From the IMG/VR virus record IMGVR_UViG_3300020036_009553, positions 64,416 to 128,415 of that record: 64,000 nucleotides of DNA. One strand, 5' to 3'. The position numbers were made by a program, and so were the translations under genes. Shown piece after piece: positions 1 to 64,000 of this stretch (the first letter of the stretch is position 1; the number at the start of each line of letters is the position of its first letter). This DNA is from a virus (lineage: Duplodnaviria; Caudoviricetes). A model generated the notes under the pieces. The model did not search any database, was not told the DNA's origin, and saw only the letters and a list, made by a program, of their open reading frames with translations.

Positions 1-1
1 C

Positions 2-30
2 ATTATCTCACAAAACAAACAAAAAAACAA
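2..30 (-). promoter_or_regulatory. leftward sigma70-type promoter (target gene outside window)
   Basis: minus strand TTGTTT-N17-GATAAT; same gtgaGATAATg context as the promoter at 1686-1714. Confidence 0.5.
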
Positions 31-126
31 CTACTTTTTCAAACATACAGTCTCTCATTAAATAACAACACCATACTACAATCCAACACACCATTCAACA
101 ACTCTAATTCTAAATGAACAGTCCTG

Positions 127-155
127 TTGATTTTAATAGAGAGATATTGTATAAT
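127..155 (+). promoter_or_regulatory. sigma70-type early promoter P1
   Basis: TTGATT-N17-TATAAT upstream of the leader/RBS of the ORF at 191. Confidence 0.8.
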
Positions 156-190
156 GGTTTCATCAACTGACAACACACAAGGAGATTCAA

Positions 191-427
191 ATGACCAGAT
201 TGTTATTCCTTGAAATCAACCTGTACACAGGGAGTGTTGAAGATGTAAAACAACTGGAGAACGACAACAGACCACTCAAGGATCAATTGGATGATTATCT
301 TATGTCCGAGTCGGAGTGGGAACAAGTCCCTAGTTCAAATCCTTATTACCAAATCCACCAAACCAAAACGTCCGTCACTTTCCAGGGAGAGGAAGGATCG
401 TTCCAATTGCTCCTTGTTGATCTGTAA
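191..427 (+). CDS. hypothetical early protein (78 aa)
   Basis: own promoter, AAGGAG RBS. Confidence 0.8.
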   Translation: MTRLLFLEINLYTGSVEDVKQLENDNRPLKDQLDDYLMSESEWEQVPSSNPYYQIHQTKTSVTFQGEEGSFQLLLVDL

Positions 428-433
428 AGATTG

Positions 434-473
434 TTGACTTGATGGAGCCATTGTTGTATAATGTCTCCATCAA
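434..473 (+). promoter_or_regulatory. early promoter P2 inside a 14-bp inverted repeat
   Basis: TTGACT(434)-N17-TATAAT(457); arms 439-452 and 460-473, one mismatch. Confidence 0.85.
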
Positions 474-497
474 CTGACAACAACCAAGGAGATTCAA

Positions 498-782
498 ATG
501 ATCAAGGTGTTGTATCGTGAAGGCGATGTTCATTCCACAGAGGAACTGGCAGAATTCTCAGTTGCTGGTTGTTTGGCTTCAATCAATCTGACACAAGACG
601 ATTGTGTTCCTGAGAACGATGACGATGCAACAGCATTGACTGTTCAGTCGTATGATATCGGTGGTCGCAACGACTCCTGTCGCCAACCAAGTCGCCGTGA
701 TCAATTGGTTGTGGTGTGCTATTCCAATAGCGATGGCGAACTTAGGACATGGACTGGTCCTGCTTCTTGTTTTGTGGGCTGA
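498..782 (+). CDS. hypothetical early protein (94 aa)
   Basis: own promoter, AAGGAG RBS. Confidence 0.8.
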   Translation: MIKVLYREGDVHSTEELAEFSVAGCLASINLTQDDCVPENDDDATALTVQSYDIGGRNDSCRQPSRRDQLVVVCYSNSDGELRTWTGPASCFVG

Positions 783-784
783 TG

Positions 785-824
785 TTGACTTGATGGAGTC
801 ATTGGAGTATAATGGCTCCATCAA
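785..824 (+). promoter_or_regulatory. early promoter P3 inside a 14-bp inverted repeat
   Basis: TTGACT(785)-N17-TATAAT(808); arms 790-803 and 811-824, one G:T pair. Confidence 0.85.
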
Positions 825-848
825 CTGACAACACACAAGGAGATTCAA

Positions 849-1373
849 ATGAACTTCGCCATTCTCGAAGAACTGATGAAAGAAGTCAATGGTGCGACGT
901 TCGTATCGATCGATACGATCACGAGCGTGACGTTACCAGGTGGCAAGAAAAACGAGTTCAATGGTCGTGTGACGAAGTTGGTGGAAGGATCGTCGGTCAT
1001 GGTCTTTCAAAACAAGAACTCGAATGCTTACGAGAACATGGTCAACAGGAGACTGGAGAAGGAGGGAGTTTCAGTCGCAACGTTCAAAGTCGGTCCTCGT
1101 GCGTGGGGCACTCGTATCCAAGATACTCCATTCGTCGAACACAACGGACAGATGTACCTTGAAGTCATCTTCCTTCACGCAGGGGAAGCATCGTACCTGC
1201 TCGACGGCCAAAAGACAACAGACCCACGCTGCATTCCTCCTTCGAAGGAAACTGGTGAAGGGAACGGTTTCGAGCAGGGCGGCTTGAACAACAAGGTGAT
1301 TATTCGTACCTACAAGGTCGATTCCATCGTCGGCATTACGATCAACAAACAGCGATTCGAGATCAAGAGGTAA
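849..1373 (+). CDS. hypothetical early phage protein (174 aa)
   Basis: own promoter and RBS; many C-ending codons (TTC, AAC, ATC, GTC). Confidence 0.85.
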   Translation: MNFAILEELMKEVNGATFVSIDTITSVTLPGGKKNEFNGRVTKLVEGSSVMVFQNKNSNAYENMVNRRLEKEGVSVATFKVGPRAWGTRIQDTPFVEHNGQMYLEVIFLHAGEASYLLDGQKTTDPRCIPPSKETGEGNGFEQGGLNNKVIIRTYKVDSIVGITINKQRFEIKR

Positions 1374-1377
1374 CATA

Positions 1378-1437
1378 ATGTTGCATTCTCCTCTTCGATA
1401 TTGTACAATGACTTCTTTGAAGAGGAGAATGCAACAT
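1378..1437 (+). promoter_or_regulatory. early promoter P4 inside a perfect 19-bp inverted repeat covering the -35 and the RBS/ATG
   Basis: TTGCAT(1381)-N17-TACAAT(1404); atgttgcattctcctcttc (1378-1396) / gaagaggagaatgcaacat (1419-1437). Confidence 0.85.
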
Positions 1438-1678
1438 GGTACAAAGAATCAAAGTACAGGGAAGGCTTTGTGTGTATCGTGATGGACACATTAAGCAGTT
1501 TCTTGCTGCGGAATTAATCGTGGGAAGGGAACGGTTTCATTATTATCCCTGTCCGAAATGTTTTGAGGATCTCGTCACTGCCCTTGATAATGAGTGTGAC
1601 ATTGAAGTTGTGGTGAATGGTGGAGATGATGTGTGGGTGAGAGGTCGTAATCCGAGAAATCCGAAACGATTGTCATGA
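1436..1678 (+). CDS. hypothetical early protein (80 aa, CPKC motif)
   Basis: GAGGAG RBS, own promoter. Confidence 0.75.
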   Translation: MVQRIKVQGRLCVYRDGHIKQFLAAELIVGRERFHYYPCPKCFEDLVTALDNECDIEVVVNGGDDVWVRGRNPRNPKRLS

Positions 1679-1681
1679 TTT

Positions 1682-1737
1682 TTTCTTGACTTGAAAGAAT
1701 TGATGTGAGATAATGAACGTTCTTTTAAGTTGAGGAG
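1682..1737 (+). promoter_or_regulatory. early promoter P5 with a G:T-rich 18-bp fold-back onto the RBS
   Basis: TTGACT(1686)-N17-GATAAT(1709); arms 1682-1699 and 1720-1737. Confidence 0.75.
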
Positions 1738-1744
1738 AAACAAC

Positions 1745-1930
1745 ATGAACACCATCACCCCCCTTTCCAACGATTTATATGTGTACTTTGATGCAACTGG
1801 TGCAGGAAGCATGCCTAGTGTTGTTGCAGGCCCCTTTCCTACACAAGAAGCGGCCGATCAATACATGATCGCTGAAGGGATGACTGATCCTCAGTTGTAC
1901 TTCACCGATGTCCTGTACGACGAGGAATAA
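1745..1930 (+). CDS. hypothetical early protein (61 aa; start moved to ATG 1745)
   Basis: GAGGAG RBS before ATG 1745. Confidence 0.75.
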   Translation: MNTITPLSNDLYVYFDATGAGSMPSVVAGPFPTQEAADQYMIAEGMTDPQLYFTDVLYDEE

Positions 1931-1939
1931 AAAGCAGCG

Positions 1940-1968
1940 TTGTATCTTCTTCAGTAAGGTTGTATAAT
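1940..1968 (+). promoter_or_regulatory. early promoter P6
   Basis: TTGTAT-N17-TATAAT; imperfect fold-back onto the RBS. Confidence 0.75.
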
Positions 1969-1992
1969 GTCTTCTTTGACGAGGAGAGACAA

Positions 1993-2313
1993 ATGAAAAA
2001 TATCACCTGCGAGTGTATCACACTTCAAGTTCAGGGAGATGGAAAAGTTTTGGTGTTTGATGGGTTCGACAGGTTTGATATTAAAATGTTGACGAATGGA
2101 CAGGGCGCCGGCGATTGTGTCAAAGAACAAATTTTTGAAATGAAGGAGTTTTTGGCTGAGGAAGAGGTTGAATTTGATGAAAATGAGTTCAAACAGAAAG
2201 AGGAGGAGTTCTTTGCGTTGCTGGGGCAAAAAAAGAACGACAACGTGATGAAAATCGTTTTGTGGAGTAGTGAATATGATAGTGCGGTAAGTGTGATGTA
2301 TCTGAAAGAATGA
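1993..2313 (+). CDS. hypothetical acidic early protein (106 aa; start moved to ATG 1993)
   Basis: GAGGAG RBS before ATG 1993. Confidence 0.75.
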   Translation: MKNITCECITLQVQGDGKVLVFDGFDRFDIKMLTNGQGAGDCVKEQIFEMKEFLAEEEVEFDENEFKQKEEEFFALLGQKKNDNVMKIVLWSSEYDSAVSVMYLKE

Positions 2314-2328
2314 AGTAGTTATGAGACA

Positions 2329-2362
2329 ACAATAAAGGGAGATCTCAGTCTCCCTTTATTGT
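2329..2362. terminator. bidirectional intrinsic terminator between convergent genes
   Basis: perfect 14-bp stem acaataaagggaga / tctccctttattgt, 6-nt loop. Confidence 0.85.
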
Positions 2363-2377
2363 GTGGTGATGTGATCG

Positions 2378-2689
2378 TTACTTCACTACTTTGGGACGAT
2401 GTGCACAGTAAAAGATGACTGCCACCACACATTCATCCGAATTAACGAACACGGTAGTGATGGTTCCTTCCCCCACTGATGCGAAACGATCACGGAGATG
2501 ATGTGTACGATCAATGACGACATCATCTCCCTTCTTGTTGAGGAACTTCAACACCGTGTCTTCGAGGAGGGAGAGATCATTACCCACCCAGTCGATGGTG
2601 TGAGTGTCCTCACCACCTCCGACGATGATAGGATCGAGGACACTACCACACTGACAGTTGTGTGAACATCCATACCGATATGACTTCAT
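2378..2689 (-). CDS. hypothetical early protein (103 aa, N-terminal CSHNCQC; start moved to ATG 2689)
   Basis: GAGGAG RBS and promoter directly upstream. Confidence 0.75.
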   Translation of the reverse strand: MKSYRYGCSHNCQCGSVLDPIIVGGGEDTHTIDWVGNDLSLLEDTVLKFLNKKGDDVVIDRTHHLRDRFASVGEGTITTVFVNSDECVVAVIFYCAHRPKVVK

Positions 2690-2714
2690 GTCTACTCCTC
2701 TCATTAAAGAAGTC

Positions 2715-2775
2715 ATTATACATCATTGTGAGTCGTGAGTCAACTGTTGACTTCTTTGATTGAATGATGTATAAT
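2715..2775. promoter_or_regulatory. back-to-back divergent sigma70 promoters
   Basis: minus TTGACT(2743-2738)-N17-TATAAT(2720-2715); plus TTGACT(2747)-N17-TATAAT(2770); the -35 boxes form the palindrome agtcaac-t-gttgact. Confidence 0.85.
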
Positions 2776-2905
2776 GTAGTCTAATGAGTGAGAGATAGAT
2801 TAAGAGAAAAGTTAAACAGGGCAGTCGAGTTATATACAAATATATAGACGATGGTCGTGTATGTCAGGTACCTGGTACACGTTCATATATCAATTTATTT
2901 TCCAC

Positions 2906-2983
2906 ATTCCAATTTAACATTTCCATCCACATTCCAACTCAACAATTCCAATTTAACATTTCCATCCACATTCCAATTTAACA
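2906..2983. repeat. 39-bp tandem duplication in a G-free tract
   Basis: 2906-2944 vs 2945-2983, 2 mismatches; internal attccaa sub-repeats. Confidence 0.9.
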
Positions 2984-3102
2984 ATTCTGAAACAATATTT
3001 TTAAAAATCTCGTTTTCAAAAATTTTTTTTGAAATTTTTTACCCGTGAAAATGGGTTTCTCTCTGCACCACTTATCCAATAGTTATAGGAGCATTATTAA
3101 AA

Positions 3103-3954
3103 ATGACCACATTTATTAGTCCGCAACGACACAATATCGCTACTATTGAGGGTGATGTGATCGTGAAAATCAACAATCAACAATTTCTCACGACCACTGC
3201 ATATTTCACAAAAAATAAAAATAATTCCGATTCCTTTTATGCTGGGCAATGCAGTAAGACTGGTCGGTGTTCCAAAATGTTATCAGCCGCAAAAATAACT
3301 GTACCACACAAAGCAACAACTGAATTCTTTCTGGATCTGGTCGATTCTGTTATTGATAATGTCACATCAAATTACACACGTATTCCTGCCCCAGTCCGTA
3401 CTATATCCCTATGGGGAGCTATCTGGATTTTCATTTCTGAAATCGACGAGCGTTGCAATTTGCATATCACTTGTGCGATTTATCCGGATCGGCTTACTGC
3501 GATCCCAATGAATGTTGGAGATGGAGCGTTTTATTGGGGGGTAGATGAGGAAACACATTTTATTACAAAGAAAGAAGAACTCAAGAAAGAAGGAACAACG
3601 TCCCCAAAAAATGAAATTAAATTCATTCATGGTCGGTGGTATGATACTCGCGTGGGGGAGGGGAATAGTGGGCTTGTACCAACTGGGGGATATACTATTG
3701 CATATCGTGACAATGGGAATGGGACATATACATTTGGTGGAACGCGGTGTAGTGAAGATGATGTGTTCTGTAAACAGACGGGTCGGGATGTTGCTGCAGT
3801 CAGGTTGAATACAGCAAGATTTTCAAATGGAACGAAACAGTCACATACGATTGAGTGTTTATCAGATAAAGTCTTCTATGATGGTGTGGTGAAGGCGTTT
3901 GCTTCACTGGTGTATCCACGACAACGACATTATACACTGAGAACAAAAAAATAA
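3103..3954 (+). CDS. hypothetical protein, paralog family A
   Basis: C-terminal KFIHGRW...GGYTIAYRDNGNGT...RCSEDDVFCKQTGRDVA..RL shared with 3995 and 5349. Confidence 0.85.
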   Translation: MTTFISPQRHNIATIEGDVIVKINNQQFLTTTAYFTKNKNNSDSFYAGQCSKTGRCSKMLSAAKITVPHKATTEFFLDLVDSVIDNVTSNYTRIPAPVRTISLWGAIWIFISEIDERCNLHITCAIYPDRLTAIPMNVGDGAFYWGVDEETHFITKKEELKKEGTTSPKNEIKFIHGRWYDTRVGEGNSGLVPTGGYTIAYRDNGNGTYTFGGTRCSEDDVFCKQTGRDVAAVRLNTARFSNGTKQSHTIECLSDKVFYDGVVKAFASLVYPRQRHYTLRTKK

Positions 3955-3994: not shown

Positions 3995-4798
3995 ATGAGT
4001 ACACATACCTCCCCTGTCCAAAAACATAACATCCCGGAGATTCCGGGCGATGTTATTGTAACGATTAATAATCGTCAATTGTATTCTGTTGCTTCATTGA
4101 TAACAATATACAATCCAGAGTTGATTCGTCATGAAGCGTATTCTACTCCTGTTAGGAAGAATGATTCGACCCCATCCCCAATGTCTCCATTGCAAGAGGC
4201 TGCAATTCAATTCATTATCAGCACAATGCAGCGGTATATTGAAGATATTACAAATAATTTTACCCAAATTCCTGATCATGTTCGGGTAATGTCAACGGGG
4301 GGAATTGTTTGGGTAATTAATTCGTCCGTCGAGCAATCGAATTTGCACATTGATTGTTCTATTTATTTGGATGCGTATATTGCGTGTTTGTATACACCAG
4401 AAATCGTGGGAGGATCCAAAACGATGGAAGATACGCAAATTATCATTACAAATGCATCTGCTCAATCACCGGCGAAATCTGAAATTAAATTCATTCATGG
4501 TCGGTGGCATGATAGTGATGGCTCTATTATTTCAAAGGGTGGGTGCACGATTGCGTTTCGGGATAATGGAGATGGAACATATACCTTTGCTACATCTCAG
4601 TGCAGTAATGATGACGCTTTTAATAAACAAGTTGGTCGCGACCTCGCTGCGGAGCGGTTGGAAGAAGGGTCGGTGGCAAAAACTGTTGCCGTGAAGTCTA
4701 ATGTGACGAATAGCGATCAGTTTCGACATATTACGTCACTGTTCTTCCATACAATGCATCATCGTAAACATCCGCAATATTATATGGCAGCAAAATGA
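3995..4798 (+). CDS. hypothetical protein, paralog family A
   Basis: full-length similarity to 3103..3954. Confidence 0.85.
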   Translation: MSTHTSPVQKHNIPEIPGDVIVTINNRQLYSVASLITIYNPELIRHEAYSTPVRKNDSTPSPMSPLQEAAIQFIISTMQRYIEDITNNFTQIPDHVRVMSTGGIVWVINSSVEQSNLHIDCSIYLDAYIACLYTPEIVGGSKTMEDTQIIITNASAQSPAKSEIKFIHGRWHDSDGSIISKGGCTIAFRDNGDGTYTFATSQCSNDDAFNKQVGRDLAAERLEEGSVAKTVAVKSNVTNSDQFRHITSLFFHTMHHRKHPQYYMAAK

Positions 4799-19902: not shown

Positions 19903-20832
19903 ATGACAGATACTACAGCACAAAAAACAGAAACAAAACCATTTGATTGGGAGTTAGCAATCACAAAAGATGATATTCCTGATCCACAGAATTATCATTT
20001 GAATACCCATGCAAAAATCACAATTCCAAAAGTAGGGATTACCAAACTCCATCTTCCTATAAATGTTGCTAGACGTGATGGTGAAACGATCACCGTCAAA
20101 GGTACTGCGAGTGCATACGTGTCGTTGGATAGTGTAGAATCTCGTGGTATTAACATGTCAAGATTGGCTAAGGGATTCTACGAGCACGTAGATGGTGCGG
20201 GCCGAACGGTGTTGCTTGATTTTATTAAAGTCGTTCAAGGGTACAAGGAGAGTCTTCCAGCCAAAGATGGATATTTGAAAGTTCGTTTTGATTATCCATA
20301 TCAACAAAAACATTGGAGAGAAGATCATTTTGGTTGGTTGTATTATCCAACAACATTTGAAGTTTGTGATGTTGGTGGCTTACTCAAAACATATTTGACT
20401 GTTGTGTATACTTACAATAGTGCCTGTCCGTGTTCTTATGAACTTGCGAGATATTCAAGAGAGCAACTCAATACTCCAGCAATTTCACATTCTCAACGAA
20501 GTGAAGCAACCGTTCGTATCGAATTTGACCCCCACGCAAAAGACCTTCTTTGGATTGAAGACGTGATTGATATTTGTCGTAAAGTTCAACCAGCAGAAGT
20601 GCTGTCTGGAATTGTTACACGTGTTGGTGAATTTAGTATGGCGCAACAAGTGGCGAGTGAGGAAAATATTGGGTTTGTTGAGGATGTTCTTCGAAAGTTC
20701 TGGATGTCATTGAACAATGAACCACGTATCTTAGACTTCTCTGTTGGGGTATGTCATTATGAGTCACTAAACGATAATTATGCTGCTGGGTTCATCAATA
20801 AGTCGTTAATGTCCAATACCGGGCTGAGTTAA
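19903..20832 (+). CDS. folE2: GTP cyclohydrolase I type B
   Basis: I.KVGI, RGINMSRL, SACPCSYEL, HSQRS, FVED, HYESL. Confidence 0.9.
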   Translation: MTDTTAQKTETKPFDWELAITKDDIPDPQNYHLNTHAKITIPKVGITKLHLPINVARRDGETITVKGTASAYVSLDSVESRGINMSRLAKGFYEHVDGAGRTVLLDFIKVVQGYKESLPAKDGYLKVRFDYPYQQKHWREDHFGWLYYPTTFEVCDVGGLLKTYLTVVYTYNSACPCSYELARYSREQLNTPAISHSQRSEATVRIEFDPHAKDLLWIEDVIDICRKVQPAEVLSGIVTRVGEFSMAQQVASEENIGFVEDVLRKFWMSLNNEPRILDFSVGVCHYESLNDNYAAGFINKSLMSNTGLS

Positions 20833-37708: not shown

Positions 37709-39421
37709 TTAGGAGGATGTGTTGGGATCGTTGGGAACAGCCCTCGAGTAAAAAACATCTCCCCTTTTTGACAAAATTAATAGATGAAGCAATGTCAAAT
37801 AGAATATGCGTTTATTAACATCACTAATCGTTGTGGAATTTAACATTTTTGGGGTTGCTCCCTTTGCGATAGATGCTGCGTGAAATAATTCATCAATTTC
37901 AACTCGTGAGTTGTTTGACTCATAAATTTGTAGAATAAATTCACGTGGATCTGTTGGTAAGAGAGCAGCTGTGGATTCATCTTGAGGTAATGCGCTAATA
38001 AAATATCCCGCTATATGTCGGTATGGTGGGAGGGCAGCAGCAACCATTAACTTATCGTCCCATTCAATATGATGTTTGTGAACGTAGAAATACAGCAAAT
38101 GAAGGAGAGCTTTCGCAAAAATGAATTCTTCTCCCTGTTCCTCTACCGCCGCAATAATATTCTTCATTTTTCGTAGCATTGCTGTTTGAGTAGATTTATT
38201 GTGGAGTGTATTATACAAATCCACGATTTCCATACACATGGCATCAGGGCGGAACATGCGGCCGTCGCCTGTTGAGAGATTACCAGCAGGACATTGAAAA
38301 CATTCATCATGCATCGTACAAGTTTTACATTGAGCTTCTTCCAGAAACATTTTTTCATATTCACTCTGAAAAGTAGCATATCTGTCGATATATACAGCAT
38401 CATTAAATAGGTTACCAAGAATCGTGTTTCCTAATTGTTCTTTCATATTGGTGAAGAAATAACATCCAGAATAATCGCCACTTCCATCCATAGCAATCAT
38501 ATCAGACCCAACCATGCAATTGGATTTTCCCTTAATTCCAACTCCCTCAGAAAACTCAATATTGAAATCTGGATACTTCATAATCAAATAAGACACATCT
38601 TTCCGGAGTTGTGTCCAATTTTCCTCGGGCCACATTACGAAACCATCGGTGACGCTTGTAGTAAGTGGATGAATCACCATGTTGGTAAGACCTAGCCCAA
38701 TAATTTTTTCAACAAATGCAACCAATCGTGGTGCTGTCTCAATGGAAACGGTGTTACGAATGCACACATTGTGAATTCGTTTAGTGGTTTTAACAATTCG
38801 GTCCATCATTTTAAACAAATGATCTTGTTGATCTTGTGTCAAGTTGCGGTGATCATGCTCTAGTTCCGTTGTGTCTAGGCTGATTAACATTCCTGTAAAA
38901 TCATACCCAAAATATTCATCAACGAAATCGGGAGTTAATAGCAATCCATTGGTAACCATATCAATATGTTGGCGATTTGAATTTGCTGATAGCTCTAATT
39001 TGTGGGTGCGCAAAAAATCTAAAATCAATTTTTTATGGATCAATGGTTCTCCCCCAAAAAATTGAAAATGTTTCATTGTGACATTGTTGCAATTTAATAG
39101 GAAATCATAGATTTGTTTCAGAGAATCAACCGTGAACCGCCCATAATCAAGCCTGTGTTGTTCATAACAATAATCACAAGTTAAATTACAAGCATTTGTG
39201 AGAATAACATTGATTAATTGAAGTTGATTAAACAATTCAGGAACTTCTTTGATGGATACGATTCGTTCAGTATCCGTTGGTTTAATTGTTTTATACGCTT
39301 TGTTCGCAACAATTCCGTGAGGTGTCACAATGGATTTGGTTGTAACGATTAACCCATTTATGTGTTCGTCGATAAGATTATTTCTTTTTTTGTAAAATTC
39401 AATTGGTTGTGTTGCGGCCAT
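37709..39421 (-). CDS. radical SAM/SPASM protein with a long C-terminal extension (rSAM-1)
   Basis: CNLTCDYC, FFGGEPL, TNG, SLD; C.VG...G...GC, CKTC.....CFQCP....C. Confidence 0.92.
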   Translation of the reverse strand: MAATQPIEFYKKRNNLIDEHINGLIVTTKSIVTPHGIVANKAYKTIKPTDTERIVSIKEVPELFNQLQLINVILTNACNLTCDYCYEQHRLDYGRFTVDSLKQIYDFLLNCNNVTMKHFQFFGGEPLIHKKLILDFLRTHKLELSANSNRQHIDMVTNGLLLTPDFVDEYFGYDFTGMLISLDTTELEHDHRNLTQDQQDHLFKMMDRIVKTTKRIHNVCIRNTVSIETAPRLVAFVEKIIGLGLTNMVIHPLTTSVTDGFVMWPEENWTQLRKDVSYLIMKYPDFNIEFSEGVGIKGKSNCMVGSDMIAMDGSGDYSGCYFFTNMKEQLGNTILGNLFNDAVYIDRYATFQSEYEKMFLEEAQCKTCTMHDECFQCPAGNLSTGDGRMFRPDAMCMEIVDLYNTLHNKSTQTAMLRKMKNIIAAVEEQGEEFIFAKALLHLLYFYVHKHHIEWDDKLMVAAALPPYRHIAGYFISALPQDESTAALLPTDPREFILQIYESNNSRVEIDELFHAASIAKGATPKMLNSTTISDVNKRIFYLTLLHLLILSKRGDVFYSRAVPNDPNTSS

Positions 39422-48815: not shown

Positions 48816-51428
48816 TTAAGTGATTATGTTGGTATTTTTGTGTTTATCATATGAAATTTTATGCAATTTATAGTCATATTGCGCTTCTTTAAAATATGAA
48901 ATTCGTTGAGCTAGGTGAGCTTTGCTGTATTTTAAATCTGAGCACACATCTGCCATTGTAACACAGTCCTTATCGTCAGCAATACGCAAGGCACGTCCAA
49001 TTCCTTGGATGACACGAACAAAAGATTTCCCAATGTCAACCGTAATAAGATGAAAGATTCTACGAATGCTTAGTCCTGTTCCAGCAATATTTACTGTGGC
49101 TATTACCACCAAATTGTCTTGTTGTTTAAATAAATTGTAAACTTCTTGCTTTTCTTTGGTTGTTTTCATATCCTTACCATTCACAAAGATGGCATTAGGA
49201 ATCAATGCCGCCAACTGTCTTCCGAATGGGATACTATCTACTAGACAAAGTACATTCCCTTTTTCATCATTCCTTTTTGATTCAATTAAAGCTGCTATCC
49301 ATCCGGTTCGGATAGTGTTGTGGCGTAAATATTCTTTCTCCGCAGAATAATCAGGAAAATATGATTCTTTAAAATTACGATAACTCAATGGGGTTTGTAT
49401 CGCAACTTCGTCGCAATATTCAGTATATTCTTTTTGTAAATTCTCTTCTAATTGAACCACATCAATGTGCAATTTGGCTAAAATTCCCATGTCCATCAAA
49501 GTTTTGGCTGGCATTTTGTGTTTTATAGGGCCAAGTGCACACAATACTGCCATGCTGTCAGCCGGTTCCTTAGGCATAGTTCCCGTAACTCCAAACCGAA
49601 ATGGAGCGTCGGCACAGTGCTCTATTAATAATTTTTGGAGGACTGCTCCCTTTGCCACATGACATTCATCCACTACGATCACCTGAAACAACCTAACAAT
49701 TTTTGGATTATTTTTCAGTGCTTGCCAAGTAGATACTACATGTGAAGGATCTAAAATTTTATGTGTGCCACTATACACCCCAGTGTGAATTCCACAGTTA
49801 ATGTAATCTGCTTTTGTTTGTTGGAGTAACACATCATTTGGAACGATGGTTAGCGTGCGATACCCACAACGACCGTATGCTTCGCATATGGCTGCGGTCA
49901 TAAAGGTATTGTGAGTCACAATATAATCATCTGTAACATACAATTGATCTGGGCTACTAACAGCAATACATTGGGCTGGTTCAGTAGAATGATATTGTAT
50001 ATTTTTAATTCGGCGCCTAAGTTGAATCCTGCCTTCTCCATGTTGTTCTATACATAGTGCCTTTTTTCTAGGGAGAGAAAACAACTCTATAGGAGTTTTA
50101 TATCCAATTCCCAGATAATACGCAAGTTGACCACGTTTTTTGGTACCGTTATAGGTAAAAGTTGGATAGCGAAAAGACATGGAGCACGTTCCACCAATTG
50201 ACCAAACCATCTCTCGTATATCATCAGCCAGTTGTTTACTTACGGTGGTATATGAAATACTTCCTTTTTTTGACACAGTTCCATCAGTGTCGAGTAGTCC
50301 TTGCAATAACCGTATCTTTTGAGATACAGATGCTTTTTTATATACTGTTGGAATAAATTTGCTATTAGATTTTGTTCCCATCAATGATAAATTCGATATA
50401 GCGCTAGTCAATGGGTTTTGTGTCGGTGGAACACTATTTGGTGGGTCAATTTTAGTGATATTATAATTGTGGTCAGTCATCGTGTGTTTGAGAGACACAT
50501 TAAATGGAATTATTGATTCAGAAACCTGATTCAATATTTCTTTATCGTGAGATGTAAGTGATATCATCTTTGCTGACCAATTTCCGTCCCCCAATAGCAC
50601 CCCCAACAAGTATGGGTCTACGGGCAGATCGCTATTTTCAGTATCCATAGGGTTAAACATTGGAATAGATACGTTTCCTGGCATTACTCCGTGGTCTGAA
50701 GAGTTTTTGCGGTCTAAAAATTGACGGATGTGGTTAGTAGATACCACTTGCTCATAAGTTTTGGCGCTACTTAATGTGGCGTTGGGCATTTTTACTTGCC
50801 ATAAATGATCGTTACAACATAAGGTGCTAGATCCATCGTGGAATAATACTTTATAAATATCTTTTGTTCCTTGAGGGAATACAGCAAGAACAGTGGTTGG
50901 CTGTCCTCTTTGATCTGAAATAATATCTCCTACCTTAATATCTCCCATCAATTTCCATCCGCTGGGGGTTAGAACTTTGGATGATAGAGGCTGTGCTTTT
51001 CCACTGCCTGTAGAAGATACGCAAATGCCATTGCCATCTTGTAATAAGGCATTAACTCCAGCCACCTGATCATCTCTCAAGATGATAGGTTTGCCAGTAT
51101 CTAAGTGTTTCACGTGAGCAAAAAAGTTATTATCAATTAAAGATGGCAATAGTTGAGGAATAGGCCGTTTATCTTCTAAATTTATATTATACCCAAATTT
51201 TGCTAAAGTCGGCAGAATTTTATCCAGTAAATACACATACGTTCTACCTGTTTTTGAAAAATACCCAATGCGTCCATCCCATCTTCCCAGTTTGTACAAT
51301 GGGTGAAACACATAATTTGGAGCAAACACAGCATACTGTTGCACCAAGAAATCCAAGTGTTCTTTGGATAACCCAATCAACACCATATTCACTTCGTCAA
51401 GCAGTCGAACAGTAACGGTTGTTGTCAT
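48816..51428 (-). CDS. uvsW: UvsW-like SF2 DNA helicase containing an intein
   Basis: WDG.I..F, LRDDQ, STGSGK/T Walker A split by the intein, DECH, TGT, GLSI, Q.IGR.LR. Confidence 0.9.
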   Translation of the reverse strand: MTTTVTVRLLDEVNMVLIGLSKEHLDFLVQQYAVFAPNYVFHPLYKLGRWDGRIGYFSKTGRTYVYLLDKILPTLAKFGYNINLEDKRPIPQLLPSLIDNNFFAHVKHLDTGKPIILRDDQVAGVNALLQDGNGICVSSTGSGKAQPLSSKVLTPSGWKLMGDIKVGDIISDQRGQPTTVLAVFPQGTKDIYKVLFHDGSSTLCCNDHLWQVKMPNATLSSAKTYEQVVSTNHIRQFLDRKNSSDHGVMPGNVSIPMFNPMDTENSDLPVDPYLLGVLLGDGNWSAKMISLTSHDKEILNQVSESIIPFNVSLKHTMTDHNYNITKIDPPNSVPPTQNPLTSAISNLSLMGTKSNSKFIPTVYKKASVSQKIRLLQGLLDTDGTVSKKGSISYTTVSKQLADDIREMVWSIGGTCSMSFRYPTFTYNGTKKRGQLAYYLGIGYKTPIELFSLPRKKALCIEQHGEGRIQLRRRIKNIQYHSTEPAQCIAVSSPDQLYVTDDYIVTHNTFMTAAICEAYGRCGYRTLTIVPNDVLLQQTKADYINCGIHTGVYSGTHKILDPSHVVSTWQALKNNPKIVRLFQVIVVDECHVAKGAVLQKLLIEHCADAPFRFGVTGTMPKEPADSMAVLCALGPIKHKMPAKTLMDMGILAKLHIDVVQLEENLQKEYTEYCDEVAIQTPLSYRNFKESYFPDYSAEKEYLRHNTIRTGWIAALIESKRNDEKGNVLCLVDSIPFGRQLAALIPNAIFVNGKDMKTTKEKQEVYNLFKQQDNLVVIATVNIAGTGLSIRRIFHLITVDIGKSFVRVIQGIGRALRIADDKDCVTMADVCSDLKYSKAHLAQRISYFKEAQYDYKLHKISYDKHKNTNIIT
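49908..50996 (-). mobile_element. class-3 (Ala1, WCT) intein with LAGLIDADG homing endonuclease, 363 aa
   Basis: starts AQPLSSKVLTPSGW, ends VTHN/T; DHLW, AQCI; LLGVLLGDG and LLQGLLDTDG. Confidence 0.9.
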
Positions 51429-55809: not shown

Positions 55810-58800
55810 CTATGAAGTAGCTAAATCTCCAAGGAGGTCCCACTCATTTGTAGCAACTTTAACTAATTTAAATTCGCACCCTGGCCCTCTCGTCTTAGCA
55901 ATGAAGCCAGTTGGAATGTTGATGACAGCAGCTCCCTCTGGGGAAATGATGACCTCTCCAGCACCAATTTGATAGCCACTTATCGAGGTCCCAACAGGAA
56001 ATGCTACTGTTGCATTTAATGGAACCGTAAGCGTTACATCTGTTGCAGATGTAAACCTGACCCAAGCTGATACATCTGATAAAGCAAGAACTTTGGTGGT
56101 GCCTGCTTCTGTTACAATAGTAGCATATTTGGGAGCTCCTGCAACAGTTTGCGTTGTACCATCAGGAAATATAATTCCGTGTGTTCCTGGTGTTCCTTCA
56201 ATTTTAATATTTCCATCTTTAATATGACAAGTTTCCGTTGGAGTTGCAACGTTGACCCCTAACCGGTTGTTGAGATCATCCCATACGAAATCTAGTTCTC
56301 CCGTAAATTCACTATTTTTGTTGAATTGAACCGCACCAATAGATGACGCAAGACTAGTATCAATAAATGGTGCCGTTGGAGGGGTAAAGTTAGCAGTATA
56401 TACAGCGGTCCCTTTTACGATGCGGAATTCATCTATGTATCCAGTCCAGTTATATCCAGATGTGCTAGCGTATATTCCCAAATAAGCAGTTGTTGATGTG
56501 ATGTTTTCCACGTTTGCTTGTGAAAATTGCAATGTTCCATTTATAAACGTCTTATATGTTCCTCCTGACCTAGTTACAGCAATGTGATGCCATTGGTTTG
56601 CTGAATAGGTGTTTGTTGAAGCTACTGCTACACCACTACTACTTTTGAACGAAAGTTTAGTTCCAGTGGAGGTATATATCCGCATAAATTCTGGTGATAT
56701 GCCATCGTTCGATAGCATAAACAATCCTTTACTATCTAGGGTTCCTGTTGGGTATGCCCAAAATTCTATAGTAAAATCGTTAGTTCCAATCATAGTGGGC
56801 AAATCGCACCGTAAATAATCTCCCGTTCCATCCAAATACAAGCTGGATCCACCAAATTTGGACTGTGCCGTTGAAATTTTAGCATCACCAACTCTCGTTA
56901 TGATAACAGGAGATCCATATGAACTATCCACAAAAGTGGTACTATTGTTAAGTCCGTCGAAGTGGAGTTGGCATATCGTTTGCCCATATGTTGAATTAGG
57001 ATTGTGCGATCCGACGTGGGTCGATTGTCCCCCCGGTAATGCTGCTTTCACTTGTTTTCCACCATCGGGAAATATGATACCATGTGTTCCTGATATTCCT
57101 TGAAGTTTAATGTTGCTATCAGATAAATGAATTCCTTCATCAGGAGTTATCGTGTTAATTCCAAGCCGTCCATTGATCTCATCCCAGACGAAAGTATTAG
57201 CTCCAGCATAGGTAGTATTACTTCTGTTGAATTGAACAGAACCAACTGATGCCGAGTTGCTATTATCTGGAAATGGGGCGGTTGGCGGGGTGAAGGCAGC
57301 CGTGTATAAGGCAGCCCCTTTAATGAAACGAAATTCATCGATGTATCCCAAGAATGAATATGATGTGCCGTTTCCAAGACCAATTGCGACATTGTATGCT
57401 GTAATATTGACGGCATTGGCCTCTGTGTGGATCAACTTTCCGTTCACAAATCCCCTAGCTGTTCCGCCCGTTCGAGTTACAGCAACGTGGTGCCATTGAT
57501 TTGGATAATATAGATCCGTTGATACAGTAGTAGTCGCGAACACAAATGTAAACTTGGGCCAGTCATATCTTACTTGAATTGCGGCGTTATTGGTAGAAGG
57601 CGTATCACAAAAACAAAAAATTCCAAGTGTTGACGAGTTTGGTAATAAGGTAGGGTATATCCAACATTCTATCGTAAAATCCTCTGTGCCAACAGAAGTT
57701 AGGGTGTCGACCGTAACATAGTCTCCTGTTCCGTCCAAAAATAAACTTGACCCACCGAATTTGGATTGTGTCGTTGAAATTTTACTATTGCCGTATAAAG
57801 TAACCTCTTTGGGGGAAGAAGATGTATCAATAATAGATGTACTGTTATTAAGACCACTAAAATGAAATTGGCATATAGTTCGCCCATATGTGGACACGGG
57901 GTCAACGGTGGTTGTATATGACGATGTTCCACCTGGTATATTAGTTCCTGATAGTTGTTTTGATCCATCAGGAAATATAATACCGTGTGTCCCAGATGTT
58001 CCTTCAATTTTAATATTTCCATTAGTAATATGGAGTTTTTCCGTTGGTTCAGCAGTGTCTATTCCAAGTCTATTATTAAATTCATCCCATACGAAATTTA
58101 CCATTCCAGATAGTGCAGTGTTGCCTTTATTGTACTGGACTGATCCAATAGATGATCCACCGGTTCCAAGGTTAGTATCAGCAAAAGTGGCAACAGGCGG
58201 CGTGAAGTTAGCAGTGTAAATTCCGACGCCTTTAATCACACGAAAGTCATCAATGTATCCTTCGAATGAATACCCAGATCCATAGTAACCACCTATCCAC
58301 AACGTCTGTGCTGTGTTATCAACAGCATATGTAAATGCAGATCCTTGGCGAACGCCATCCATGAACAGAGATATTAATCCTCCAACGCGAACAACTGCCA
58401 AATGGTACCACCGATTTGGTATAGTTGCTGAGGTAGCTTGAGTATTCCCCACAGTCGAAAGGGTAAATGAAGATCCATTTGTCCTGATGTGTAGTGCCGT
58501 ATCAGATAAGTTCGTAGATATTTGCCATATTCCATCATTAGAACTAGGTACCCACGATCTTGCCCAACACTCAATGGTAAAATCTTCAATTCCAAGGGAT
58601 GTGCCGAGTGCCACACTCAAGTGGGAATTTCCTCCAACCAATTGTAAACTAGATCCACCAAATTTTGATTGGTACGTAGTTAGTCTTGGAGTACCATATG
58701 ATGTCACAGTTTTGGCAACAGGAGATGTATCAGCGAATGTTGTGCTATTGTGGCTTCCATCAAAATGGAATTGGCACAGTGTCGAATCATAAATTGGGTT

Positions 58801-61800
58801 AAGCCCAGAATTATCAACAAATGTTGATGTTCCACCAGGAATGCTCGCTCCTGTTTTTAGTTTTGTTCCATCGGGAAATATGATACCATGCGTTCCAGGG
58901 GTTCCTTCAAGCTTAATGTTTCCATCTTTAATATGGCACAACTCTAATGGGGTTGTCGTATTGATCCCAATACGATTCTTAATTTCATCCCACACGAGAA
59001 TGGATTCGCCGGCGAATGTCACATTGTTTCTATTATATTGAATTGACCCAATGGATGATGGCTCACTCGTGTCTGGGAATGGAGCTGTTGGCGGGGTGAA
59101 GTTGGTTGTGTAAATAGCACGACCCCGGATATATCGAAATTCATCAATATATCCTTGCCAAGGATAGCTCGTGCTGTAGTACAATCCAATATACAAATAT
59201 TGAGAAGTAATACTGGTAGCTCCAACGGTTTCTGATGCGAACAATACACCATTGACAAAGAACCGTAATACTCCACCTGTTCTAGTAGCAGCATAATGAT
59301 ACCAAGTATTTACAAATCTTATAGGACCTGATAGTTGGTTGTTTGCTGGTCCTCTGGCTAAAAATTGAGATAACGTCACATATGCACGAACTTGAATTCC
59401 GGTACCTTCTGTAGTGGACAATTGAAATATTCCATCGTCCCCACCTGAATCTGTGTGCATTACCCAACATTCTATTGTGAAATCTTCAGTTGTTGGGGTT
59501 GGGGACAATGTAACTCTTAAATAATCTCCCGTTCCGTCCAAGTATAAACTGGACCCGCCAAATTTGGATTGTGCCGTTGAAATTTTAGCATCACCAAATC
59601 GAGTAATTGTTGATGGGGTGTATGCTGAGTCAGTAAATGTCGTTGAATTATTATCACCATCAAAATGAAGTTGACACACTGTTAATCCGTAATCAGAATT
59701 AACATCATGCCCACTTGAATACGTGGAGGTTCCTCCTGGTGAGCCACCGCCTCCGCCACCTCCAGCGCTCGCCGTAGTTTGCACTGTGTCATCAGGGAAT
59801 ATGATACCGTGGACCCCTACTGTTCCTTCGATTTTAAGATTACCATCTTTAATATGAACGGCTTCTTCCGGAGCTGTTGTATTAATTCCTAATAAATGCT
59901 GGGTAGCATCCCACACAAGTGAACTATCTCCACCGAAAGCTGTGGCATTTTTGTATTGAACAGAATTTATAGAAGCACTAGAATATCCGGACGGAATGCT
60001 AGCATATTTTTGATTAGTTCCATCTGGAAATATGATACCATGTGTTCCTGGTGTTCCTTCAATTTTAATGTTTCCATTTTTGGTGTGGATAGATTCATCA
60101 GGACTGGGAGTGTTTATCCCGAGTTTGCTGTTGATTTCATCCCATACAAAAGTGCTCACTCCTGCAAACGTAGAAGAACCCTTTTTAAATTGAATAGATC
60201 CAATAGATCCACCAGCATATGATGTTGGGAATGTTGCAGTTGGAGGGGTAAAGTTGCTCACATACAGAGCAGTTCCTTTAATAAAACGAAAATCATCAAT
60301 GTACCCCTGCCAAGGATAGTCGCCACTATAATAGGTACCTATCCACAAATTAGTACTGGTAATATCTACTGCGTTGTTGGCGTTGTGAACCACAACACCA
60401 TCTACGAAGAATCTTAATACTCCACCATCTCTCGCAACAACGAGGTGGTACCAAGTATCAGCTGATATAGTAAACGCAGTTGATTGTGTTCCTCCGGAAT
60501 GTCTAATCTCAAATCGTTGACCGTATGATAACACTTGGAGGGCAGCGGATCCGGTTACGGTGTCTGATAGTTGAAACACACCATCGTTTACATTGTCGTT
60601 ATCCATGTTGACCCAACACTCAATGGTAAAATCTCCCGTACCAATAAGATTTCCAGCTAGACTGACGCTTAAATAATCTCCAGTACCATCTAACCGCAAG
60701 CTCGTTCCTCCAAATTTAGACTTAGTGGTTGAGATTTTAGCATCACCATATATAACCGGAGTTTTGGGGGTAGGAGAGGTGTCTGTAAACGTCGTTGAAT
60801 TGTGGGTGCCATCAAAATTGAATTGACACACAGTATCCCAATATTCTTCGTTTGGTATAGTTCCATCAACAAAAGATGACACTCCTCCAGGAGATCCACC
60901 AGAAACATCTACCCATTCCGTATTGTAGTCTGTATTATCTATTTTTACCAGTGTTTGTCCTGTTGTTCCACCGACTGGGACGCCTTCTCCGCCCCCTCCA
61001 GCAATTGTTATCCATTCCGTATTGTAGTCTGTATTATCTATTTTTACCAGTGCTTGTCCTGTTGTTCCACCAACCGGAACACCGATGCCAGGCGCCCCAT
61101 CGCTGCCAGACCCCCCTCCGCCCACTGCTCCTTTAAATTGTCTCCAGTCAATAAAGTCAGTTCCGGTGGAAGTTTGTGTTATTTTTGATTTGACAGCATT
61201 GCCATATGAACTATCTGTTTGAACAATGATAGTAGCAACGGGGACAAATTCAAGGCTCAATGTTGATAGTGCTCCAAGGCTAAGATTATACCACTCAACT
61301 TCAGCGCCTGCTTGTGCCAATGCTGCTGTTGTATATTCGTTTTGTCCAACAATCCAGAATAAGTGTCCTCTAATGTCATTAGTTGCCAGCAAGTGCATTA
61401 GAACAAATTGACCATTGGCTACTTCTGACAGTTGCCATTCATTGATAACAACTTCGTTCCATGCTGCTCTTCCGCTTCCAATTGAAGTAACGACATATCC
61501 AGAACTAGGCAACACCCGCCAATTTCCTGTTATCCCCTCGCGATAGATGAATGGAATACTGGCAGGAGATGCCTTTGTTGTTACCGAATGTTGTATATCT
61601 TCGTCCCAAAATGTACCTGAGTTAACCCCAAGTTGCGCGTGAGAAGCAATGGATCCATTTCCAATAGTTACCCCAGTTGGCGCTAACCCAGTTGCCCACC
61701 TTGCTCCAACTGTGTTGTGGTTGTATAAATGGGTTCTCGAATCCATTTCACGGCCATGTCGTTCGTCTCCAACTACAACCGCCATTTTGTTTGTAGCATC

Positions 61801-63999
61801 CCAATATATTGCTGCTGTGAAAGCATATGATGTAATGATTAATGGGTCAAATGCTGATGTTTCTGTTAACGTACCACCGTTGTTGTAATATATGAAATGA
61901 ATACCTTCTGTATCCGGAATTTGGATAGTCTCAGCTGTTCCTGGTTTAGTGTAGCGGATTCCGTTACACCAAATGTAATATGGTGATCCTGATGAAATGG
62001 TTAAGGTTCGGGTGCCATCATCAAATGACATACTAACAGTATTTGGGTCAGTTTCCCAACCATTTTGTTGAATTCCACCAGATATTTGAACAGTCCCATC
62101 AGGATATTCTATGCTTGATACTTTGACGGCTCCGTTAACATAAAGTTTATATGATGAATTTGGAGCAATGCCCAAACTAACATTTCCAGCAGTACTCATC
62201 ATTAATCCGGTGGTACTAAATGTGGTAGCATTTGGCGTGATGTTAAATCTGTTAGAACTATCTACCCCCCAAGAATACCAATTGGTTGCATTAGATAGAA
62301 TGTTCAATGCTTGACCGCCTGCTCCAGTCCATTGCGTAATTCTATTATTTCCGCCAAGAGCAGTATCAATCATAAAGGTAGCACTAACAGATCCGCTTGT
62401 TGTACTACCCAATCTCAATTTGTCTGTTATTTGTGCATCACCATATACACTGAAAGTTCTTGCCACTGTATCTGCACCAGAATTTCCAATAATCGTATTA
62501 CCGTTAGGTTTTATCGCAAGTTGTGTGGTGTTGGAAGTTTTTAGTTGTATTTGTCCTGCTTCTTGGGAAACAATATTAAAATCACCAGTTCCACGATGAA
62601 TTATTTCTGTGGCGGCATTCGCTCCAGAATCATATCTAATAATTCTTGTTCCAAAATCGGTGTATGTTGTATCTCCAACTAAATCAATGTATGCTAATCC
62701 TGAACTACTTCTTCCATACCCTAATTCTAGTGTAGCGGATGTCGATCCGTTTGGTTGAACATATACGGACGCTCCGGTTAAGTATAATACATTATTTGTG
62801 TTGCTGGTGAACGCGTATTGACCAGCTGGATTGATTTCTTGTGTCCACGAAGTTACAGAGAAAACATTTTCAAGTTTGATTTTTCCATCAGTAACATGGA
62901 TGTATTCCGTTGGAGTTACTGTATTATATCCAACATTTCCTGTGAAAGAATCTCCAGATTTTTTAGCATACTGAGGATGATCATCATCACCAAGGCCAGA
63001 TAGTCCACCATGATCTAAAACGCCAGGATCATTATCAATCCACTCAACGTTGTTATCATTGTTGTTAATCTTAGCTAATATTTGGCCCGTTGTTCCACCA
63101 GGAGGAAGATTCCCAGCAGTAAAAGACAAACTATCGGCGTAAAATTTTGTAACAGCGTGGTTATTAGCCGTTGGAGGTCCAGCTAAAAACAATTCGCCAG
63201 TCATTGTGCCACCAGATTTTTTTATGTACAAGGTATCAGCAGTTGAAAGAGATGTATCGACATACAATTTTGTCGTTGCTTCCAATTCATTAGACGGAGC
63301 TCCGCCTAATATAAGTGGCCCAGATACTGTTCCGCCTGTTTTGAGTAGGTATTGTGGGTGGTCATCATCAGCAAGTCCTAACAATGCGCGATGCTCTGTG
63401 ACACCACCTCCACCGGCATTATCATCAACATATTTTTTGGTAGCGGCTTGTTGGTCTACCGTTGGTGTTCCAGTCAATAATAAATTGCCAGTCATTGTTC
63501 CACCAGACTTGGGCAAATATTGTGGATGATCATCATCCGCTAACCCTATTAAGTCACCGTGATCAATAATTGGTGGAGGCGGAGCAGTCCAAAAAACATT
63601 GTTATCGGTATCATCAATCTTGGCTAGTACTTGGCCAGCTGTTCCGCCAGATGGAATACCAGCAGGTAGAATGCTCCATTCCGTATCATTATCAGCATTC
63701 GAACTTTTTGTTAATACTGTTCCGGCTGTTCCACCTGGGGGTACGCCCAATCCGTCGTTTCCAGGAATTCCTTGAACTCCTTGTGGGCCTTGGCTTCCAG
63801 TACCAGCAGGTCCTTGCGCTCCTTGAGGTCCTTGGTCACCAGTTGCTCCTTGTGGTCCTTGAGGTCCTTCATCTCCTCGCAATCCTTGTTCCCCTTGAAT
63901 TCCTTGAATTCCCTGAGGACCTTGTGGTCCCATTGGACCAGCAAAGCTAAATCCATCCACATATTGTTTAGTAGCAGCTTGTAAGGCTGTTGCTGGATC
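55810..63999 (-). CDS. giant tail fibre/adhesin with collagen segment and five LamG/ConA-like domains; 5' end outside window (>2729 aa)
   Basis: frame stays open to the window edge ([16 protein letters not shown]...); G-X-Y repeats, DDDHPQY repeats, five DFTIE.W...W.H.A..R...GYIDEFR domains. Confidence 0.9.
60913..61071. repeat. 60-bp direct repeat inside the fibre gene
   Basis: 60913-60972 vs 61012-61071, one mismatch ([19 protein letters not shown]). Confidence 0.9.
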
Positions 64000-64000
64000 A

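Follow-up and report, generated by a model that had tools for sequence, protein, structure and literature searches.

Long-stemmed hairpins within the early promoters of an uncultured jumbo phage: probable PeSL-type boundaries between small gene cassettes

Four early promoters near the start of a 64,000-nucleotide stretch of viral DNA raise the question of why a promoter should be built inside a hairpin, with its -10 box in or beside the loop. The stretch, called the window below, spans positions 64,416 to 128,415 of IMG/VR record IMGVR_UViG_3300020036_009553 and makes up the latter half of a viral contig 128,415 bp long; coordinates are those of the window unless marked "genome". A preliminary description placed the hairpins at 434-1992 and offered three explanations: concealment of the ribosome-binding site in read-through messages, RNase III-type processing, and promoter switches made of single-stranded DNA (ssDNA) or cruciforms. 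The hairpins are present there, but the feature is far larger, as the four promoters (P2 to P5) form the tail of a 53-promoter array on the + strand (genome 41.3-67.2 kb; window -23,000 to 2,775) that begins ~23 kb upstream of the window. We propose, at a probability of about 0.6, that these units are cassette boundaries of the PeSL type, in which an early promoter is combined with a stem-loop, in the hyperplastic early region of a jumbo phage that is uncultured and a distant relative of T4, and that the hairpins insulate the cassettes from one another. The PeSL kind of unit is already known from T4-like phages; the form found here is a longer-stemmed one.

The promoter array and its hairpins

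Promoters of the array were curated as TTGACx-16/17-TATAAT, and most match 10-12 of the 12 consensus positions. Nearly all 53 are followed by a Shine-Dalgarno sequence (SD) and the start codon of an open reading frame (ORF) of 35-320 aa. Each tiny gene directly precedes the host-type promoter of the next, with the previous stop codon mostly -4 to +15 nt from the -35 box, such that the intergenic space is wholly promoter plus leader. Many leaders start with a conserved box, CATCAACTGAC(A/G)A. This box sits 5 nt past the -10, both here and in several IMG/VR jumbo-phage contigs (G001-G005), and resembles the CATCGAAACGA of the T4-type phage RB49.

Fold energies of the RNA were expressed as z-scores against 200 dinucleotide shuffles per promoter, and for each of P2 to P5 none of the 200 shuffles reached the native energy. 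The 14-nt stems at the -10 that had been described for P2 and P3 were borne out. P2 (431-483, +; -35 at 434-439, -10 at 457-462) pairs 439-452 with 460-473 over 14 nt with a single C.U mismatch, adds an outer helix of 5-6 bp across an internal loop, and folds at -20.6 kcal/mol (z -4.4); its 3' arm leaves the SD uncovered. It drives a gene of 94 aa (498-782, +) whose stop codon abuts the -35 of P3. The latter (782-834, +; -35 at 785-790, -10 at 808-813) pairs 790-803 with 811-824 through 13 Watson-Crick pairs and one U:G, again with an added outer helix (-24.3 kcal/mol, z -6.1), and stands before a gene of 174 aa (849-1373, +) that separates it from P4. In both P2 and P3 the -10 is shared equally between the loop and the 3' arm.

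P4 and P5 are arranged differently, with the -10 inside a loop of ~20 nt and the SD under the 3' arm. The P4 hairpin (1378-1437, +; -35 TTGCAT at 1381-1386, -10 TACAAT at 1404-1409) was said to have a perfect 19-bp stem over the SD and ATG, and its arms (1378-1396/1419-1437) do pair at 19 of 19 positions, or 21 if one G:U is counted. Its 3' arm takes in the SD GAGGAG (1423-1428) together with the first two bases, AT, of the ATG start codon at 1436, and the fold is the most stable of the four (-34.8 kcal/mol, z -9.4). P4 drives an 80-aa gene (1436-1678, +) for which no relative was found. The P5 hairpin (1679-1740, +; -35 at 1686-1691, -10 GATAAT at 1709-1714) pairs 1679-1699 with 1720-1740 and is imperfect only in five G:U pairs, as had been noted, with 16 Watson-Crick pairs making up the remainder of its 21 positions; it too covers an SD GAGGAG (1732-1737), folds at -21.8 kcal/mol (z -5.0), and precedes a 61-aa gene (1745-1930, +).

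Across the array, stems range from 8 to 24 bp, most being 8-15 bp, with loops of 5-22 nt in most cases. The longest, at 19-24 bp, are the four of P4, P5 and the promoters with -10 boxes at genome 62,624 and 51,052. One P3-type unit ~1.8 kb before the window (genome 62,590-62,650) carries two extra bases (GTTGTCAGTTGATGG, against GTTGACTTGATGG in the others); it forms a near-perfect 24-bp stem of -36.8 kcal/mol over a -35/-10 spacer of 19 nt, and the hairpin here seems to have been retained at a cost to the promoter.

The hairpin is far from universal. P1 (TTGATT-17-TATAAT, 127-155, +), the first promoter past a terminator and an antisense gene, has none (-7.7 kcal/mol, z 0.06; flank shuffle p 0.51). 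P6 (TTGTAT-17-TATAAT, 1940-1968, +), described earlier as carrying a weaker version, lies at background (-11.6 kcal/mol, z -0.34, with 66 of 200 shuffles as stable; flank shuffle p 0.16). It precedes the final gene of the array (106 aa; 1993-2313, +). A further promoter at 2747-2775 likewise lacks a hairpin (-6.4 kcal/mol, z +1.0).

Pairing beyond chance and the strand that folds

When spacer and flanks were shuffled with the hexamers held fixed, 18 of the 53 promoters had p<=0.05 (2.65 expected) and 12 had p<=0.01 (0.5 expected). Promoter-like sites outside the array that have an SD and an ORF served as controls; two of 22 reached p<=0.05 and one p<=0.01, none of them in the window, which agrees with the earlier remark that other promoters in the window do not show the hairpin. 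Because the stems sit in different registers, we used a partner-swap test instead of covariation on a fixed structure, pairing the upstream part of each promoter (-34 to +2 relative to the start of the -10) with the downstream part (+4 to +50) of its own or of another. Mean pairing between the flanks was -16.4 kcal/mol for native partners and -12.8 kcal/mol for swapped ones (z -7.5), and none of 20,000 permutations reached the native value. It is thus the architecture, and not the sequence of the arms, that is conserved, as first suggested from P2 to P5: the arms are unrelated across promoter families (for example ACGGCAAGGGAATTA, CTTCTGTTGTTAGTT, TGTCGTCAGTTGGTG and the arm of P4). The 3' arm GGCTCCATCAAC is moreover met by two differently placed 5' arms (genome 59,749 and 63,016), one adjoining the -10 and the other 7 nt farther upstream, which argues for selection on pairing rather than on sequence.

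Related contigs gave a weaker swap-test signal (z -1.3 to -2.8) and have a few strong stems of their own, unrelated in sequence to those described here, among them a 16-bp stem at 6895 of contig L030 and an anti-SD stem in contig L029. Rfam searches of 1-3200 matched no family except for a noise hit on the terminator, and Megablast against GenBank phages returned no match. Among sequencing runs, no RNA run was listed as containing the phage; four metagenome runs contain 17-29% of the sampled words of the array. The 174-aa gene has homologues at 40-62% identity in many viral and metagenome contigs; covariation among orthologues could not be followed through them, as they are at most 62% identical and their upstream regions are boundaries of other types. 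In L020-L023, L026 and L027, from other phages, the homologue of the 174-aa gene is preceded at ~60 nt by a classic terminator hairpin whose T-run is fused with an extended -10 (for example GGCCCC-TA-GGGGCC-TTTTTTATTGTATAAT), a different solution for this gene boundary.

Could such stems arise without any function, as a by-product of quasi-palindrome (templated) mutation or of gene conversion between copies of the repeated promoter? Palindromes could be seeded by the partial complementarity that exists in any case between the -35 region (GTTGAC) and the +1 box (ATCAAC), and half of the promoters have no hairpin. We nevertheless regard this origin as very improbable: there are arms unrelated to either box, such as ACGGCAAGGGAATTA, related phages have unrelated stems of their own, such as that in L030, and G:T pairs are retained over A:C.

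This last asymmetry also bears on which strand folds. With arms aligned at equal penalty for G:T and A:C, stems scoring >=16 contained 414 Watson-Crick pairs, 33 G:T and 9 A:C (p 0.0003), and after families were collapsed by hand the G:T to A:C ratio was still ~14 to 4 (p 0.03). The preference for G:T on the + strand, first noticed in P5, therefore extends to the array. P5 itself pairs at -23.8 kcal/mol in the sense and -9.2 kcal/mol in the antisense strand, and the stem at genome 44,728 at -28.9 and -12.8 kcal/mol, respectively. The case for folding of the + strand is moderate, not decisive.

A switch at the level of DNA, in which a cruciform or ssDNA hairpin would toggle the promoter, had been suggested by analogy with the early promoters of phage N4 and with Frpo of plasmid F. 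The N4 hairpin promoters have stems of 5-7 bp and loops of 3 nt and are read by the N4 virion RNA polymerase, while Frpo rebuilds -35 and -10 as a duplex in its stem. An inverted repeat tied to a promoter is what these systems share with the array, and many stems here are fully Watson-Crick, allowing either strand to fold, with sense and antisense energies similar overall. Neither the N4 nor the Frpo layout is found, however. The loops measure 5-22 nt, the -10 stays unpaired, unlike that of Frpo, the five G:T pairs of P5 become A:C on the other strand, and the boxes are of the plain sigma-70 type; the giant ORF of the window is a Laminin_G_3/collagen protein and not a virion RNA polymerase. 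A DNA switch is accordingly the least probable of the explanations weighed here. The giant ORF (55810-64000, -) exceeds 2,716 aa and is cut short by the end of the contig; it contains collagen-like repeats as well as five Laminin_G_3 domains.

Two hairpin classes and their possible roles

The position of the -10 in the loop may have a simple origin. With the stop codon hard against the -35 and both hexamers fixed, only the 17-nt spacer and the stretch after the -10 would be free to vary, and any stem over the promoter would then have to straddle the -10, leaving it in or beside the loop. On this account the geometry follows from compaction, and would by itself be no sign of a mechanism acting on the promoter. 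As first described, each promoter has its predicted start site downstream of the 5' arm, and the hairpin would thus form only in RNA read through from the upstream cassette. Its effect may be to insulate each cassette from the read-through flux of up to ~50 co-directional strong promoters.

Two classes of hairpin can be told apart by the cost of opening the SD/AUG, which we computed for 47 promoters both in read-through RNA and in the promoter's own transcript, predicted to start 7 nt past the -10. Opening is costlier in read-through RNA by >=6 kcal/mol at seven of the 47: P4 (+14.1 kcal/mol from predicted start sites), P5 (+8.4) and five others in the array. For this class, which buries the SD/AUG, efficient translation would be expected only from the transcript of the gene's own promoter. 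The cost is not raised at P2 (-0.3) or at most other strong stems. At P3 (+4.1) occlusion is modest, and this promoter falls mainly in the second, SD-free class. The proposal that a read-through message hides its ribosome-binding site is thus supported by these calculations for P4 and P5, and to a modest degree for P3, but not for P2 or the majority of strong stems. In the SD-free class, which would include P2, in the main P3, and most strong stems, the 3' arm starts within the final bases of the -10 and reaches ~+4 of the predicted transcript. This puts the hairpin ahead of the message made from the gene's own promoter, with ~20 nt between it and the SD; here it may attenuate transcription, serve as a processing site or protect the 3' end of the upstream message, in line with what was put forward, and tried in one assay, for the PeSLs of RB49.

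Three other roles were tried and set aside. A canonical intrinsic terminator is ruled out by the missing U-tract after strong stems. A sigma-dependent pause acting together with the hairpin as terminator was rejected, the 3' arm still being within the polymerase at the expected pause. A palindromic repressor operator would require as many repressors as there are unrelated arm families, of which there are at least eight.

Processing is a rather unlikely role for the long stems as a whole. Under that explanation they would be sites for host RNase III, which would cut read-through RNA into single-gene messages, leaving the upstream message with a 3' hairpin and giving the downstream message a near-native 5' end. 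The four stems of 19-24 bp are compatible with this, as are the outer helices that P2 and P3 add across an internal loop and the 3' arms of these two promoters, which finish at about the predicted start site. Most stems are only 8-15 bp, however, and this is short for RNase III, whose site is about two turns of double-stranded RNA. The enzyme would also have to come from the host, as no RNase III gene was found on the contig. A search for a RegB gene found none on the contig, but control genomes gave none either, and the search is therefore uninformative. In phage T7, RNase III hairpins between the early genes yield single-gene messages with 3' hairpins. The two systems share hairpins placed between early genes of a long transcript; the T7 sites, however, do not lie over promoters, and a typical substrate of RNase III is longer than most stems of the array.

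Where the SD is covered, the hairpin might instead couple translation of neighbouring genes, with the ribosome that ends the upstream gene melting the 5' arm and exposing the next SD. The distances would suit such a role, the upstream stop codon lying 5 nt from the 5' arm at P4, 0 nt at P5 and ~10 nt at genome 63,318. At P4, however, the ribosome would on termination get no farther than the outer third of the stem, while the SD is paired in the inner part, and coupling is inapplicable to hairpins with a free SD; we consider it improbable.

Insulation of the cassettes, the reading that we prefer, has several observations against it. In about half of the array promoters the hairpin is not above background. 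No U-tract follows any of the 18 strong stems within the 10 nt inspected (the tails resemble CTGACAACAA or GGTACAAAGA), and a terminator scan called nothing at the stem sites of the array. Hairpins are found at 15 of 37 tight stop/-35 junctions and at 3 of 16 loose ones, a link that is a trend only (p 0.21). When all strong stems, or an unbiased selection of promoters, are taken, sense and antisense energies do not differ significantly. An AT-rich tract, which accompanies comparable units in other phages, is absent from the array, the 20 nt upstream of the -35 being 58% AT against 56% array-wide. The stem could be opened by a ribosome terminating 0-10 nt ahead of the 5' arm, which would turn a block into translational coupling. 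Finally, start sites, read-through, attenuation and occlusion are all inferred from the DNA sequence.

Relation to PeSLs and to other phages

PeSLs were described in hyperplastic regions of the T4-type phages RB49 and phi1 by Arbiol et al. 2010 (PMC2839356). The unit is limited by an upstream stop codon and a downstream SD/ATG, and its stem-loop lies most often between -35 and -10 or over the -10, with G-T pairs marked in the published figure (PMC2839356). One such stem-loop lowered lacZ expression about as much as rrnB T1, and PeSLs were proposed both to halt the build-up of transcription along the array and to mediate gene shuffling (PMC2839356). They were later extended to other T4-like phages (PST/T4 and nt-1/KVP40), with a differing stem consensus (Comeau et al. 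2014; PMC4122927).

The array shares with PeSLs its dense rows of tiny ORFans and the order of its parts, from stop codon through a sigma-70-type promoter with embedded stem-loop to SD and ATG, as well as a stem-loop that often lies over the -10, the G-T pairs, and near-identical units before unrelated genes. A stable stem-loop is present in about a third to a half of the units. Folding the intergenic gaps of the RB49 region, which we also retrieved, gave at least eight units whose spacer pairs with the sequence following the -10, as in GGGGATAT-AGCATA-ATATCCCC and GGGTGTAT-ATCATA-ATACACCC, and which then carry a CATCGAAACGA or CATCAAGACGAG box (CATC... at +1); their geometry is that of P2 and P3, but with stems of 7-8 bp. 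The RB49 stem-loop of the lacZ assay also lacks a clear U-tract. With 14-24 bp in this comparison, the stems here have two to three times the length of those in RB49, which pair a G-tract with a C-tract; the stems of the array are of mixed, promoter-specific sequence, and some extend to the -35 and to the SD/AUG. The AT-rich tract upstream of the -35, described for RB49 and phi1 and regarded here as accessory, is missing, and the lineage lies outside Straboviridae.

The role proposed for PeSLs in shuffling leads to an unlikely, though serious, alternative in which the units would be chiefly recombination seams, with hairpins perhaps acting as ssDNA or cruciform substrates and any effects on RNA being secondary. 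Promoters identical over spacer and leader do precede proteins without detectable similarity (-10 boxes at genome 48,936/49,351 and at 62,624/63,016/65,223). The promoter at genome 59,369 is chimeric, with a P3-type spacer and a downstream half like that of 49,706 joined at the -10, hence in the loop, and one crossover in RB49 mini-circles was mapped in the loop of a stem-loop. Homology would suffice for such crossovers, however, with no need for a hairpin, and selection on pairing is indicated both by the excess of G:T and by the 3' arm that has two independent 5' arms. A stronger version, in which a phage recombination enzyme would recognise the hairpins by structure, in ssDNA or as cruciforms, making them attC-like boundaries of variable sequence and fixed geometry with the crossover in the loop at the -10, is one to which we give very little credence; if true, the tiny early genes would be mobilised as promoter-bearing cassettes. 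Integron attC core sites proper were rejected, as by eye, and with no search aimed at an integrase, the order GTTGAC...ATCAAC is reversed relative to attC R''/R'.

For the SD-burying class there is a second precedent. In T4 gene e, I-TevI and Aeh1 mobE, a promoter inside a hairpin that buries the SD gives a translatable message, while long transcripts from upstream are translated poorly (PMC3014915). P4 and P5 resemble these genes in that the 5' strand of the hairpin lies upstream of the promoter and the SD is buried. T4 gene 49 is a further case of a ribosome-site hairpin with an internal promoter. The internal promoter of T4 gene e and I-TevI is a late one (TATAAATA) and the arrangement a timing switch, whereas the promoters here are of the early host type and stand in a chain of similar promoters, so that the effect would be insulation between neighbours.

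The genes of the window would make the phage a distant relative of T4. They include a gp32 family protein (PF08804) and UvsX-like, clamp-loader-like and UvsW-like proteins, the last probably with an intein. The UvsX shares 50-56% identity with its counterparts in IMG/VR contigs (72-292 kb) in which T4-type Gp23 and the promoter-plus-box motif also occur; among cultured phages the closest, with 44-46% identity, are the jumbo phages RsoM2USA, CM1/RAS14 and XacN1. No Gp23 or portal gene was found on the contig, which is ~57% complete. Judged by these sequence comparisons, its nearest kin are jumbo phages of the XacN1, RsoM2USA and Munch type, not Straboviridae. Salmonella phage Munch has units of the form TTGACA...GGGAGTATTA-TA-TAATACTCCC-ATC.

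Other features of the window can be noted briefly. A perfect 14-bp hairpin (2329-2362) closes the + strand array and faces a convergent - strand gene (2378-2716); it looks like a two-way terminator. After these, within 2703-2787, back-to-back consensus promoters diverge (- strand, 2743-2715; + strand, 2747-2775), and their TATAAT boxes form a 14-nt inverted repeat, I4. Direct repeats TTCCA(C/T)ATTCCAAT...AACA at 2885-2990 lie upstream of two paralogous genes (3103-3954 and 3995-4798; 283 and 267 aa) that share the block IKFIHGRW...DNG.GTYTF. The UvsW-type helicase (48816-51428, -) is split by a LAGLIDADG domain, probably an intein. Genes of the FolE2-type GTP cyclohydrolase, radical SAM and QueE-like kinds (19903-20832, +; 37709-39421, -; and 4035-4934 of L074) suggest a 7-deazaguanine DNA modification pathway.

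In conclusion, these findings would carry the PeSL design into a remote lineage of jumbo phages, uncultured and found in wastewater and freshwater, and in an extreme form, whose long and promoter-specific stems make tests by compensatory mutation easy to design. The role of the PeSL stem-loop, for which attenuation, processing, 3'-end protection and translational gating are all candidates, has so far rested on one reporter assay, and the two separable classes could decide among them. The geometric rule that the -10 ends in the loop is general and should aid annotators in spotting such units. Cultured relatives with a like layout, such as Salmonella phage Munch, may be used for experiments on the boundaries of these early gene cassettes.

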